From a virus (taxonomy: Duplodnaviria > Heunggongvirae > Uroviricota > Caudoviricetes), in the IMG/VR virus record IMGVR_UViG_2675903429_000009: DNA of 4,515 nt. One strand, given 5' to 3'. Of this stretch, positions 512-4,515 are shown piece by piece. How positions within the stretch are numbered: position 1 is the first letter of the stretch; each line of letters opens with the position of its first letter. Position numbers and translations under genes: made by a program. The notes under the pieces are model-generated. The model was given only the letters and a program-made list of their open reading frames with translations. It was not told the DNA's origin and did no database searches.

Positions 512-1396
512 TCATCTNNNNNNNNNNNNNNNNNNNNNNNNNNNNNNNNNNNNNNNNNNNNNNNNNNNNNNNNNNNNNNNNNNNNNNNNNNNNNNNNNNN
601 NNNNNNNNNNNNNNNNNNNNNNNNNNNNNNNNNNNNNNNNNNNNNNNNNNNNNNNNNNNNNNNNNNNNNNNNNNNNNNNNNNNNNNNNNNNNNNNNNNNN
701 NNNNNNNNNNNNNNNNNNNNNNNNNNNNNNNNNNNNNNNNNNNNNNNNNNNNNNNNNGTCATTACCGTCAAGATAAGCCACCTCAATTGTGTCCGTTCCC
801 TGTGCTGAAAGCATGTACCATTGCTTATCACTGACTTCATCAAGGCGGGGATCGACAATAATATCCAGTTGTTTGTGGTACGGGTTATATGAACCACTGT
901 TTGTATCGGCACCGAAAGGCGTGGTTGAGTTAACCATTTGCAACGCTCTGTCTTCCAGAGCCGCAGGAACAAGAAGGAATTTTGGCACAATATTCAGCAC
1001 CTCACCGTTTTCATCCCTCTGTGTGCGCATTGCACGGCGTGCAATGCCAAGCCCTGTAGTGCTGACTCCGTTATCAATATCATTTCCGTGTTTTTTGCTG
1101 AACAGCGGTATACCGTCAGAAAGCTTTGTGTTTCCTGTCAGCACCAGATGAACCAGATTACCCACCGTTCTGGCGGCTGCTCGCCCCATTGCCTGTGGGA
1201 TAACTGTTAACTGATTCAGGTCATCGTTAATAATCGCCTGTCGGGTAATGCTGAAAATATTTCCGTAAGTTGCCAGCGCGATTGGTTCGCCACGGTCACT
1301 GGTGGTGATGTATTTATATTCCGCGCCTTCCGGCACTTTGTTTAATGTAGAGAAGCCATTCAGGCCAACACGACGTGCCTCATGGAAGTTTGACAA
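512..1396 (-). CDS. probable phage major capsid protein (3' end uncertain because of the N gap)
   Basis: Long minus-strand ORF (at least 213 real codons before the gap) immediately downstream of, and overlapping, the ClpP-family prohead protease gene, which is the typical protease-capsid gene order. Size is consistent with an HK97-fold capsid protein lacking its own delta domain. The only start codon in frame is TTG (1396-1394) behind an AAAAAAGG purine run; alternatively the ORF is reached by -1 frameshifting from the protease gene. Capsid identity rests on context and general sequence character, not a verified homology hit. Confidence 0.6.
   Translation of the reverse strand: MSNFHEARRVGLNGFSTLNKVPEGAEYKYITTSDRGEPIALATYGNIFSITRQAIINDDLNQLTVIPQAMGRAAARTVGNLVHLVLTGNTKLSDGIPLFSKKHGNDIDNGVSTTGLGIARRAMRTQRDENGEVLNIVPKFLLVPAALEDRALQMVNSTTPFGADTNSGSYNPYHKQLDIIVDPRLDEVSDKQWYMLSAQGTDTIEVAYLDGNDXXXXXXXXXXXXXXXXXXXXXXXXXXXXXXXXXXXXXXXXXXXXXXXXXXXXXXXXXXXXXXXXXXXXXXXXXXXXXXXXR
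518..757. other. assembly gap (240 N) inside the capsid gene
   Basis: Run of N from 518 to 757. Reading-frame continuity across it is unknown, so the 3' end of the capsid ORF (stop at 512-514 in the nominal frame) cannot be trusted. Confidence 0.99.
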
Positions 1397-2505
1397 TGAA
1401 CCTTTTTTCGTCCACTGGCGGAACGTTTCGCCGCTGTGTTCACGGATTTTTCAGCACCACCAGCAAGGATATAAGTAAAATCGCTGCTGCTGTGGGTGAA
1501 TGCCGCGTTTACTATCTGCGAGCGTGTGCTGTAGCTGCCTGTGCTTATGCCGCGATGGGTTAATGATGCCTGTGCCATATCGAAAAGGCTCATCATGGCG
1601 TAAGGGTTGCCGCGTTCTGCCTGTTCATGTCCCAGACGCGCATTAAGCCCCTGACGCATTGCATCGCCGGTTATGTTGCCGTTATCCGTGTACGCGTAGT
1701 AAAGATTTGCGGGGGTGGTTTTGTTTGTCGGTGTCGATTCTTTACCCATAGTGAGTAAAAGGCGTTCGCGTGCATCCTCAACGCTACAGCCTGAATCAGC
1801 AAGACAACTTATAGCCAGGTCGTTATATCTTCCATTGAACGTGCCAAACAATTCACGTATCCCGTTGAGTCGTTCCTGTTCTCCGCTGCCAGTTTTCTGG
1901 CTGATCATGCTTTTAATATTTTCCGGCATATTCGAAAAATCTCCGATTCGTTTTGATTCAATTCTGGCCATTGCTGTAATCGCGGGTATAACCTCATCTG
2001 CGAAGCCATTAGCCTTACACTCATTGCCATCCATCCAGGTTTCCGCCTCCATCATGGCGGTGATTTCCTGTTTGCTCCTGCCCGTTCTTCCGGCGTAGGT
2101 TTCCGCCATCGTGTCGCCCAGCTTGTCCATCAGGTCAGCAAAGCGGCGAACGTCGCCCGACACTCCGGCAGTAACACCACGGGGGGCATGTATCATCATC
2201 ATCGCGTTTTCAGGCATAACGATGTGATCGCCACACATGGCAATAAACGAGGCCATAGAAGCCGCCATGCCTTCAATGTGTACAATTTTCTTTGCCGGAT
2301 GATTTTTCAGGGCGTTATAGATAGCCAGCCCTTCAAAGATGTCGCCACCAGGTGAATGGATGCGAAGATGGATTTCAGGCACATTACCGCACGCGTTGAT
2401 CTCGTCAGTAAGTGCCGATGCTTTTACACCGTACCCGCCGATCTCGTCATAAATGCGTACATGTACAACATCAGCCATAGCCTTAATGGAAAACCATGTT
2501 TTCAT
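1360..2505 (-). CDS. ClpP-family (S14) prohead serine protease with a ~180-aa C-terminal extension (scaffold-like or N-terminal capsid region)
   Basis: The translation contains the ClpP-like catalytic motifs GMAASMAS (Ser) and MMIHAP (His), comparable to ClpP GQAASMGA and MIHQP. ATG at 2505-2503 is preceded by AGGAG 9 nt upstream and overlaps the stop of the upstream small ORF (ATGA). 381 aa. Confidence 0.85.
   Translation of the reverse strand: MKTWFSIKAMADVVHVRIYDEIGGYGVKASALTDEINACGNVPEIHLRIHSPGGDIFEGLAIYNALKNHPAKKIVHIEGMAASMASFIAMCGDHIVMPENAMMMIHAPRGVTAGVSGDVRRFADLMDKLGDTMAETYAGRTGRSKQEITAMMEAETWMDGNECKANGFADEVIPAITAMARIESKRIGDFSNMPENIKSMISQKTGSGEQERLNGIRELFGTFNGRYNDLAISCLADSGCSVEDARERLLLTMGKESTPTNKTTPANLYYAYTDNGNITGDAMRQGLNARLGHEQAERGNPYAMMSLFDMAQASLTHRGISTGSYSTRSQIVNAAFTHSSSDFTYILAGGAEKSVNTAAKRSASGRKKVHCQTSMRHVVLA
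1402..1408 (-). other. candidate -1 ribosomal frameshift slippery heptamer A_AAA_AAG
   Basis: Seen in sequence: the minus strand reads CGA AAA AAG GTT in the protease frame (codons R-K-K-V near the C-terminus), i.e. the X_XXY_YYZ heptamer A_AAA_AAG in the correct phase. The -1 frame continues as GGT TCA TTG TCA AAC TTC CAT..., which is exactly the capsid ORF frame. Confidence 0.4.
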
Positions 2506-2696
2506 AGCCAGGCTCCTAACGTTGCCCTGTACCAGTATTCAACCGCGCTTCTCGCAATCTGCCCTTTCGTGGGTACTGGCATTCCAGGGTGATGACTTTT
2601 AATGAACTGCTGATAGCGTTCGAGCTTCTCCATAGTTCCGGCGTCTATGTGCACTGTTGCACTTTTATCCGGTTTTCTGCTGTTGTTCTCTGGCAT
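2502..2696 (-). CDS. small ribbon-helix-helix-like protein, translationally coupled to the prohead protease
   Basis: The ORF is open from 2729, but the likely start is the ATG at 2696-2694, which sits 7 nt after a GGAGG (2708-2704); the ATG ATG at 2729 has no Shine-Dalgarno sequence. 64 aa. The pattern of a short beta-strand (ATVHID) followed by two helices (AGTMEKLERYQQFIKS and TKGQIARSAVEYWYRA) resembles the Arc/MetJ/CopG fold by eye. The stop overlaps the protease start (ATGA). Confidence 0.45.
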   Translation of the reverse strand: MPENNSRKPDKSATVHIDAGTMEKLERYQQFIKSHHPGMPVPTKGQIARSAVEYWYRATLGAWL

Positions 2697-2769
2697 AAGT
2701 CTGCCTCCGTTATGATTAACGGGCATCATTATTGATCGATAAAACTGGTAAATAAATCATTTTCTATCT

Positions 2770-2799
2770 AAAAATCAGATTATGTATTTTCTGATTTTT
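2770..2799. promoter_or_regulatory. perfect 10-bp inverted repeat AAAAATCAGA-N10-TCTGATTTTT (operator-like)
   Basis: Seen in sequence, 40-70 bp upstream of the RHH/protease/capsid operon start. On the minus strand it overlaps a weak sigma70-like candidate (ATGACA, about 16 nt spacer, TAATCT). Confidence 0.4.
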
Positions 2800-2893
2800 G
2801 TCATACCAGCAAAAGAATTGACTAATTATTGCCACGCCAGCACAATTAAGACTCATCATTTCGGTAGTGGCAGTATCCTTTGTCGCTGACAAA

Positions 2894-2928
2894 GCGCCTC
2901 CGGTGGCACCATCGGGGCGCTTTTTTTT
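2894..2928 (+). terminator. strong intrinsic terminator, plus-strand orientation
   Basis: GC-rich hairpin GCGCC(T)CCGGTG-GCAC-CATCGGGGCGC (2894-2920, about 11 bp with one bulge and one G-U pair) followed by T8 (2921-2928). An alternative hairpin GGCGC-T8-GCGCC (2916-2933) is followed by TGTTTTTT. In minus-strand orientation the hairpin is followed by only three U residues, so it is mainly a plus-strand terminator. Confidence 0.6.
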
Positions 2929-3126
2929 GCGCCTGTTTTTTGTAAATGCTTTCGGGAACGTTCCGGCGTCGAACAAAAAACAACCTAATTCGACACTAAA
3001 AATTTTTATTTTGCCATATATCAATAACTTAAACTGGTGGTGATGGTGACATAAAAATCAAAAAATACGCCTTTTTCCGCGAACCGCCCGCCCCGTGGAC
3101 AGGCCACCCCCACCAGGAGTACCTAC

Positions 3127-3149
3127 AAAAAAGCCGGATTGCTCCGGCT
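3127..3149 (-). terminator. intrinsic terminator of the orf81-ssb operon
   Basis: 7-bp stem AGCCGGA/TCCGGCT with loop TTGC (3132-3149). On the minus strand it is followed by UUUUU (3127-3131) and starts 15 nt after the ssb stop codon. Confidence 0.55.
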
Positions 3150-3164
3150 TCTGTCACTCGTTGC

Positions 3165-3587
3165 TTAAAACGGTATGTTATCCCCGTACGGATCATCATT
3201 CCCCGCCTGTTGTTTGGCCCTGTTCAGTGCATCAGTGGCCTGCCCCTGTTGGCCTTTTTTACCGCCCGGTCGCGCCGTTCTGGCACTGATTACACTGTCT
3301 GCGATAACCTGCCAGCCCTGCCGCGTTTCTCCGTTCTGGCCTGTCCACTGGCTTACCTGCATGTTACCCGCCACGCTCACCAGCTCGCCTTTCTGGTGCT
3401 TTGCCAGTGCGTCAGCCTGTCTGCCAAACGCCAGGACGGATAACCATATCGTCGCCGTTCCGTCATCTGCCTGGCTGCACGGCAGGGGAACCGCCATACT
3501 CGCCATCGTCATTTGCGTACCCTTGCTGGTGGTCTTTAACTGCGGGTCAGCCACCAGCCGCCCGTAAGCCGCTATCTGTGCTGTCAT
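3165..3587 (-). CDS. ssb: single-stranded DNA-binding protein (SSB family), 140 aa
   Basis: The N-terminal OB-fold region aligns by eye with E. coli SSB (IAAYGRLVADPQLK versus VILVGNLGQDPEVR; WLSVLAFGRQADALAKHQKGELVSVAGNMQVSQWTGQNGETRQGWQVIADSV versus [50 protein letters not shown]). A Gly/Gln-rich linker and an acidic tail ending NDDPYGDNIPF match the conserved SSB DDDIPF tip. GGAG Shine-Dalgarno sequence; the ATG overlaps the upstream stop (ATGA). Confidence 0.85.
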   Translation of the reverse strand: MTAQIAAYGRLVADPQLKTTSKGTQMTMASMAVPLPCSQADDGTATIWLSVLAFGRQADALAKHQKGELVSVAGNMQVSQWTGQNGETRQGWQVIADSVISARTARPGGKKGQQGQATDALNRAKQQAGNDDPYGDNIPF

Positions 3588-3829
3588 GCTGTCTGCTCTC
3601 CGGTTTTAACGTTGATGGTTGTCACCTGTTCCGCTTCGGCAATCTCCCGTTCTGTCAGCGTGGCAAAGTTTGCCGCCGTCGTGGTCATGAATGCGCTTAT
3701 CAGTTCGGGATGTGCTTTCGCGTATCCTTCCCCGGCGTTGCGGTCGATGATTTTTATCGCCACCCTCAGCCAGTGTTCTGTCAAATCAAGGGCGTGAGAT
3801 TGTGGTTTTTTGGCGTGCTTCGTTGTCAC
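3584..3829 (-). CDS. hypothetical protein (81 aa) co-transcribed with ssb
   Basis: GTG start at 3829-3827 with GAGG about 9 nt upstream; stop overlaps the ssb ATG. No family recognised from the sequence. Confidence 0.5.
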   Translation of the reverse strand: MTTKHAKKPQSHALDLTEHWLRVAIKIIDRNAGEGYAKAHPELISAFMTTTAANFATLTEREIAEAEQVTTINVKTGEQTA

Positions 3830-3874
3830 AGGCTTTACCTCACAGCAATAAAATAAAATTTTTGCATTTTAACC

Positions 3875-4103
3875 CTTCACCTGTTCACCTTTTGCAATTT
3901 TCCCTTTTTATTCATGATGTTAATGGGTTAACAGTTTCACAAAAACTATTCACCAACTGTTCACCACTGTTCACCCTTAAAGCTCAATAAAGAATCAAAA
4001 AGGTGAACAGTGAATAGTTTGGTGAACAGTTCATAAATAACTGTTCACCCTATAATATACTGATATAAAAGACATTTATTGCAGGGTGAACAGTGGTGAA
4101 CAG
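3875..4103. repeat. iteron array / putative origin of replication (P4-type TGTTCACC octamers)
   Basis: Seen in sequence: perfect CTGTTCACC at 3881-3889, 3957-3965, 3967-3975 and 4041-4049; perfect inverse GGTGAACAG at 4002-4010, 4021-4029, 4085-4093 and 4095-4103; degenerate copies at 3875-3881, 3947-3954 and 4009-4017. Adjacent copies are spaced 10 bp apart. The array is flanked and interspersed by AT-rich stretches (3841-3870, 3895-3950, 4051-4080). From memory, TGTTCACC is the phage P4 type I iteron bound by alpha protein at ori and crr. Confidence 0.75.
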
Positions 4104-4132: not shown

Positions 4133-4429
4133 TCATTTGTGACCTATTGCACATGATGGCATCCAGTCTTCTGAATCCTCTGTCAGGGTCACATTTGAAC
4201 GCAAACCGTGCTTCGTTTTCCGTTTCATATACTCCCTGCCATATTCCGCCATTGCCCCCGGCATATCTTTACCGAAGCGCGTCAGTGTTACAGGTTTACC
4301 GAATCCGTGTGCCCTCATATATGCCAGATAGGCGTGATAAAGATACCTGCGCGGACTGAACGGAATAATTTCGGCATTACCCACTAACAGACCATCACAC
4401 ATTACCGACGACATGAGGTGTACTGGCAA
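4133..4429 (-). CDS. small ORF resembling the C-terminal region of phage/plasmid primase-helicases (possible gene fragment)
   Basis: The translation contains YLYHAYLAYMRAHGFGKPVTLTRFGKDMPGAM, which matches by eye the conserved Y-x-x-Y-x-x-W-x-(5-6)-x-P-x-S/T-x-x-x-F-G motif found near the C-terminus of P4-alpha/D5-type primase-helicases. The start is weak: TTG at 4429 or ATG at 4414, neither with a clear Shine-Dalgarno sequence, and an in-frame TAG lies at 4439-4441. The two other minus frames are open to the window edge, so a frameshifted longer gene is possible. Confidence 0.4.
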   Translation of the reverse strand: MPVHLMSSVMCDGLLVGNAEIIPFSPRRYLYHAYLAYMRAHGFGKPVTLTRFGKDMPGAMAEYGREYMKRKTKHGLRSNVTLTEDSEDWMPSCAIGHK

Positions 4430-4515
4430 TAGCGGACACTACCATTTGTTCTTTTTTTAAGCAGCCATCTGATGATATTTTTCCCTGAAGGCTGCCGGGG
4501 AGATATTCCCCAGAC

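Follow-up and report, generated by a model that had tools for sequence, protein, structure and literature searches.

A member of a conserved small-protein family encoded between the replication origin and ssb of an EcCICFT073-type chromosomal island

Introduction

The phage-inducible islands of bacterial chromosomes known as PICIs are common in Escherichia coli, and drive gene transfer and phage interference. To our knowledge, the initiator and the origin are the only parts of their replication module that have been studied so far. The 4,515-nucleotide stretch of DNA analysed here, referred to as the window, carries an open reading frame (ORF) for an 81-residue protein between a replication origin and a gene for SSB, the protein that binds single-stranded DNA, and our literature search found no paper naming or testing this gene. 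The locus raises the question of what such a protein does, and in particular whether its partner is the SSB encoded next to it.

Results

The ORF lies in a decaying Gram-negative PICI

The features needed below are the following (window coordinates).

3165–3587, minus strand: PICI-type ssb gene, 140 aa, OB-fold (PF00436, E = 3.9e-16; TIGR00621, 60.5 bits)
3584–3587, minus strand: ATGA overlap of the ORF stop and the ssb start, kept in all loci with an adjacent ssb (76/76)
3584–3829, minus strand: 81-aa ORF, member of the phrog_1231 family (ORF list and profile match)
3838–3841, minus strand: Shine-Dalgarno sequence GAGG, 8 nt 5′ of the GTG start (read from the sequence)
3882–4102, both orientations: replication origin with eight exact TGTTCACC iterons (exact octamer count)
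4133–4417, minus strand: 3′ end of a P4-alpha-like primase/initiator gene with a C-terminal Pox_D5 domain (Pfam and homology)
4418–4515, no strand assigned: end of an IS600/IS3-family element interrupting the primase gene (homology to the uninterrupted gene breaks off at 4417)

Megablast assigned the region to chromosomal islands of E. coli that are about 10–12 kb long, and the DNA of the 81-aa ORF was 100% identical in strain GB089. The close relatives L001 and L009 showed the island order integrase, small HTH regulator, YlcI/Icd-like genes, DUF4222, primase, iterons, ORF, ssb and capsid-type genes, and EcCICFT073 (L105) shared with them the order int-HTH-...-DUF4222-primase-ori-ORF-ssb-capsid genes. 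All genes called in the window were on the minus strand; int and alpA lie outside it, and were seen only in these three relatives. PICI origins are located directly 3′ of pri/rep, with sets of iterons flanking an A+T-rich region (Fillol-Salom et al., PMC6092414), and the window contains this arrangement, with the 3′ end of the primase gene followed by the eight iterons and A+T-rich DNA. Primase and SSB constitute the “Replication” category of the islands in a genomic survey (PMC10111431). An earlier note, made from the sequence of the window alone, had compared the locus with phages and plasmid leading regions; the island order and the match to EcCICFT073 (PMC6092414) replace that setting with a Gram-negative PICI satellite of the EcCICFT073 type, present here as a decaying copy. 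The corresponding EcCICFT073 gene, C_RS06990 (WP_001260558.1, 85 aa), encodes a protein 88% identical to the window protein over 72 aa and differing from it in the N-terminal 10 residues, and follows primase and ori and precedes ssb with a 4-nt overlap, as in the window. Unlike EcCICFT073, the window island is decayed, and has a protease/capsid fusion module in place of the capsid and decoration genes.

The decay is visible at two places. Annotated copies of IS600 were 97% identical to the stretch 4418–4515, and from 4410 on the DNA was about 99% identical to parts of Stx-converting phages that carry no annotation. The gene for a ClpP-like prohead protease/major capsid fusion (512–2505, minus strand) has a 13-nt deletion at about 1438–1442 compared with the intact L001 gene, splitting it into two frames, 1360–2505 and 512–1396. 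With an insertion sequence in the primase gene and a frameshift in the capsid gene, this copy of the island looks defective as read from its DNA. The capsid part of the fusion gene also contains a run of 240 N (518–757). A 75-aa ORF at 2502–2729 (minus strand) matched phrog_4934, which has no assigned function (E = 1.3e-46), and shares 4 nt with the start of the protease/capsid gene; for L001, the RefSeq annotation has only a 43-aa version of it. Between ssb and this next gene is a 435-nt non-coding gap (2730–3164) with two overlapping terminator-like hairpins (2898–2934, plus strand, antisense to the operon); a late promoter, a packaging site or an antisense transcript might lie in the gap.

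The origin and ssb flank the ORF on either side. The spacer from the primase stop to the ORF is 303 nt long and 67% A+T, including stretches of 77% A+T at 3976–4001 and 4050–4084. The octamer TGTTCACC occurred eight times compared with 0.16 expected, a count reached in none of 200 shuffles, and the ORF begins 53 nt downstream of the iterons, bearing out the earlier placement of an origin next to it. In phage P4, this octamer bears the annotation “ori type 1 repeat”, and the crr/ori type 1 repeats there have a similar layout directly downstream of an alpha-like primase; P4 differs in having no homolog of the 81-aa protein and no ssb. A match of the Rfam model for a plant microRNA precursor at 3931–4044 (minus strand; 32 bits, gathering score 150) was discarded, being caused by the inverted iterons. 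The stretch from primase to ssb yielded no terminator on the minus strand. On the other side of the ORF, the SSB scored above the TIGR00621 cut-off of 53.95 bits and ends in a C-terminal tip, ...DDPYGDNIPF, resembling the SSB-Ct motif of the host protein. Comparison of the window SSB with its relatives from L010, L016 and L018 revealed at least two types of linker, …GKKGQQGQATDALNRAKQQ… and …GNRRKTTGTQGNQPPAGG…, and tips reading DNIPF, DDIPF or DDISF, which assort freely with other modules.

The ORF is a gene under purifying selection

The ORF starts with GTG (3829–3827), and its stop codon TGA (3586–3584) shares bases with the ATG of ssb (3587–3585), so that the translational coupling to ssb proposed in the earlier note rests on an actual ATGA overlap. 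The predicted product of about 9 kDa matched phrog_1231 over its full length (E = 4.7e-49; residues 2–80 on profile positions 4–82 of 83). Among 33 distinct enterobacterial alleles, pN/pS was 0.20 for helix 1, 0.07 for the loop and helix 2, and 0.16 for the C-terminal tail (residues 58–77), and dN/dS between divergent pairs was 0.14–0.4; free variation was confined to the last four codons, which are those overlapping the ribosome-binding site of ssb. Since the family match, the low pN/pS and the conserved start, Shine-Dalgarno sequence and ATGA junction coincide, the ORF is, by its pattern of conservation, a genuine gene under purifying selection. That it arose by chance within origin-flanking DNA, as its GTG start might suggest, is practically out of the question: relatives have ATG at the same start position with a Shine-Dalgarno sequence of their own, and a search recovered 666 family representatives, so that the conservation pattern appears effectively to refute a spurious ORF. 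The computed net charge of −1.1 and pI of 6.4 agree with the charge of about −1 given previously; the strongly acidic surface of a DNA-mimic anti-restriction protein of the Ocr or ArdA kind is lacking, and this candidate, already doubted in the earlier note, was set aside.

The protein belongs to a widespread family with a conserved hairpin turn

To place the protein, we searched sequence, profile and structure collections. Scans against Pfam, NCBIfam and PADLOC gave no match, and searching PDB sequences with the protein and with a profile of 56 sequences returned coiled-coil noise only (profile E ≥ 0.33). All 56 diverse relatives matched phrog_1231; in Pfam they gave just two marginal matches, each to a single member. 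In PHROGs v4, phrog_1231 has no assigned function, and it has neither a Pfam or NCBIfam model nor a solved structure; membership is therefore silent on mechanism. An exhaustive profile search collected the 666 representatives at E ≤ 1e-3, mostly 70–140 aa long and mostly located in small islands with integrase, AlpA and primase-helicase genes, and sharing the motif A-I-x2-I-D-x2-F-G-x-G-Y-A-K-x-H-P-E-L-I-A-A-F-M-x-T-A-A-x-D-F. Other searches added little: the only matches of a word-index search were “hypothetical proteins” of enterobacteria, a genome contig scan found matches only in Shigella and in one doubtful alphaproteobacterial fragment, and tblastn against 50,697 deposited phage genomes found no match. 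Among 5426 complete E. coli genomes, 1638 (about 30%) carried homologous DNA, with up to six copies per genome and with 2182 of the 2184 places chromosomal. The 81-aa gene adds one more copy to a family that is catalogued but uncharacterised, in an element of a known kind.

The AlphaFold model predicted a helical-hairpin core (residues 9–57, block pLDDT 83–91). The most conserved residues are D29, G33, G35, Y36, A37, H40, P41, E42, L43, F47 and M48; Y36, A37 and L43 were invariant among 74 sequences, and the other top positions were kept in at least 90% of them. A highly conserved polar cluster, I-D-x3-G-x-G-Y-A-K-x-H-P-E-L, maps to the hairpin turn. The N-terminus varies across the family, and the tail at residues 58–77 (...EREIAEAEQVTTINVKTGE), found in enterobacterial members only, was the part that the monomer model gave with low confidence. 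Neither an enzymatic nor a nucleic-acid-binding motif was recognised in the protein, and a fold search with the hairpin model gave generic matches only, none of them informative. Remote homology and structure prediction, the check proposed in the earlier note, accordingly yielded the phrog_1231 match and the helical hairpin, but no informative fold and no characterised relative.

Individual members depart from the common form. P0146 and P0264 are tandem duplications. In Nitrosomonas-type islands (L020 7001–7453, L021 6043–6234, L005 8248–8454), the family gene is followed by an overlapping gene of 63–68 aa with the motif ...HDLLQEWIADHP..RK.H..AYDLFKWLE.RSIGGIQDE, and in P0340 (L020 7001–7453; 150 aa) the two are fused, linking the family to a second small domain without known function. 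A C-terminus resembling the SSB tip, EDLPF, occurred in one of 344 family members (P0213, 149 aa, ...PVYPEDLPF); it may be due to chance, and was not taken as evidence.

We also compared the protein with small proteins encoded near the replication or recombination genes of other phages. Hhalign gave probabilities of at most 0.7% for the lambdoid-phage proteins Gam, NinB (Orf) and Ren; NinB/Orf and Gam, which act as SSB-interacting or recombination accessories, resemble the 81-aa protein in being small, helical, expressed early and encoded near such genes, with no detectable sequence relationship. For ORF106 of P4 (Cnr, DUF5375), a small regulator encoded upstream of alpha, the hhalign probability was 0.1%, and the two proteins are not related.

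The gene and ssb are mostly coupled in Enterobacteriaceae, and each occurs without the other

The tight coupling had been read as a sign that the protein is a stoichiometric partner of SSB. We collected 81 loci with the enterobacterial-type gene, many of them near-identical islands and hence not independent samples; ssb was the next ORF in 75, and with L051 added, the 76 loci with an adjacent ssb all had the 4-nt ATGA overlap. Three of the 81 stop short of the next gene, and the remaining three (L003, L041 and L042) had a 101-aa gene between the family gene and ssb. In L003 (Shigella flexneri CP182556), the inserted gene (8219–8524, no Pfam match) is the one that takes part in the ATGA overlap, and ssb begins 8 nt after its stop. 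The gene–ssb pair was kept in E. coli with either initiator, the P4-alpha-like primase or a RepA-family helicase.

Outside this group, the 18 non-enterobacterial loci, representing about 13 distinct contexts, included none with an SSB-like ORF within 6–8 kb. Conversely, the E. coli islands L106, L109 and L110 carry a PICI-type ssb and no family member anywhere in the island. Among these, L109 (NZ_CP028166) is a capsid-forming PICI-like island with a DUF927 initiator, whose ssb is 92% identical to that of the window; behind the initiator region and upstream of ssb, at about 9423–9460, it retains the last 12 or so codons of the gene (..TINVKTGEQTA*), which looks like a recombination scar inside the tail of the gene. 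In complete E. coli genomes, ssb DNA was found at 2372 places in 1821 genomes, compared with 2184 places in 1638 genomes for ORF DNA. Allele types of ORF, SSB and initiator assort freely in E. coli, making covariation uninformative. With islands having ssb alone and non-enterobacterial loci lacking it, the family gene and ssb are mutually dispensable in nature. The island SSB is not an obligatory partner of the 81-aa protein, and the ATGA coupling seems to belong to a single recombining module and does not prove a stoichiometric complex; the inference from coupling to partnership does not generalise.

The association with replication modules extends across lineages

The association with replication genes reached further. 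In 9 of about 13 distinct non-enterobacterial contexts, and throughout the enterobacterial ones, a replication initiator encoded on the same strand lay no more than two genes away from the family gene. The order int, ..., AlpA, family gene, one or two small genes, and a Toprim/DUF927 primase-helicase of about 950 aa was shared by five independent island types, beta-proteobacterial or metagenomic (Nitrosomonas and metagenomes), and there the family gene and the alpA stop overlap by 4 nt. Further contigs had the gene directly after a PriCT_2/D5_N/Pox_D5 primase or a Prim-Pol/DUF5906 primase-helicase. Three phage-like contigs departed from this pattern: two had the gene among small early genes away from replication genes, and a third had it beside Nu1/terminase genes on the opposite strand. 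This synteny, conserved in many lineages, backs a link between the gene and the replication module, as suspected in the earlier note. The initiators next to the family gene belong to at least four different families, and the protein core barely changes with them.

Discussion

We tentatively favour, at somewhat less than an even chance, a reading in which the 81-aa protein is a dispensable accessory of the replication module, probably dimeric, that uses the conserved patch at its hairpin tip to bind a conserved host protein of DNA replication or metabolism. The gene would probably be co-transcribed with primase and ssb, as these genes lie on one strand with no minus-strand terminator between them, and ribosomes ending the ORF would restart on ssb through the ATGA overlap. 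Two-helix hairpins would probably pair into a four-helix bundle, given the tandem duplications seen among relatives. The island’s own initiator is probably not the partner, which may rather be one conserved across hosts, because the core is nearly invariant beside unrelated initiators and alleles assort freely; a component of the host replisome or of DNA metabolism, contacted across Proteobacteria, would be an example. Several observations count against a replication accessory. The rep-ori segment of EcCICFT073 alone suffices to drive plasmid replication (PMC6092414), which implies that initiation can do without the protein; the gene is missing from entire islands that carry the same ssb; the three phage-like contexts place it in early accessory regions or beside terminase genes; the lack of a recognisable nucleic-acid-binding or enzymatic motif and the generic fold matches give it no support; and synteny with replication genes may mean only a position in the operon.

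The proposal that the protein is a stoichiometric partner or chaperone of the island SSB, with the ATGA junction fixing the ratio, could apply only to the enterobacterial branch. Its best argument is the enterobacterial tail, which is under selection and modelled with low confidence, as expected of a docking segment, and the invariable overlap with an adjacent ssb and the persistence of the pair with either a primase or a RepA helicase point the same way. We nevertheless regard it as quite unlikely, considering the absence of SSB-like ORFs from the non-enterobacterial loci, the three islands that have a PICI-type ssb (at most 92% identical) without the gene or with just its 12-codon scar, the three loci in which a 101-aa gene intervenes and, in L003, takes over the overlap, and the free assortment of ORF and SSB alleles. 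Regulation of the module, by a modulator of copy number or of the initiator like P4 Cnr or by a transcription factor acting with AlpA, appears distinctly improbable. The ORF lies directly beside the iterons, P4 has its small regulator gene ORF106 next to alpha, and the beta-proteobacterial genes overlap alpA; yet the comparison with ORF106 detected no relationship, no HTH or other DNA-binding family was detected, outside Enterobacteriaceae the gene does not keep its place beside ori, and the core does not co-vary with the type of initiator.

A factor for host takeover, counter-defence or interference with the helper, that is, a small inhibitor from the early operon directed at a host nuclease, a defence sensor or a helper function, would explain the accessory pattern, in which closely related islands differ in whether they have the gene, as well as its place among small early genes in prophage-like contigs and its variable N-terminus. 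Such a role would also have escaped the published lambda-interference screen of EcCICFT073 genes “after the ori”, whose clones run from c1499 onward (supplementary primer list, PMC6739421) and so include neither the orthologue of the 81-aa gene nor ssb. However, the core shows strong conservation all the way from Nitrosomonas to E. coli, unlike typical arms-race proteins, and the protein is not acidic and shows no similarity to Gam; the empty PADLOC result adds little, since PADLOC covers defence rather than anti-defence proteins. We consider this explanation unlikely, with the evidence on an anti-defence role as such pointing neither way. A bolder variant of the favoured accessory role, which we likewise think improbable, is that the family is an unrecognised and widespread adaptor, whose tip D..G.GYAK.HPEL would capture a component of the host replisome or SSB interactome for an SF3- or DnaB-type initiator, the enterobacterial tail providing a link to the island SSB.

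The findings point to no surprising mechanism, and the 81-aa protein is a well-defined candidate rather than a discovery. Its gene is among the most conserved of the island, is represented by an orthologue in EcCICFT073, a genetically tractable model island, and belongs to a family that spans Nitrosomonas to Escherichia without a match in Pfam, NCBIfam, PADLOC or the PDB or a function in PHROGs. Its binding partner would reveal how satellites plug into the replication machinery of their hosts, or would add a new class of early accessory proteins.
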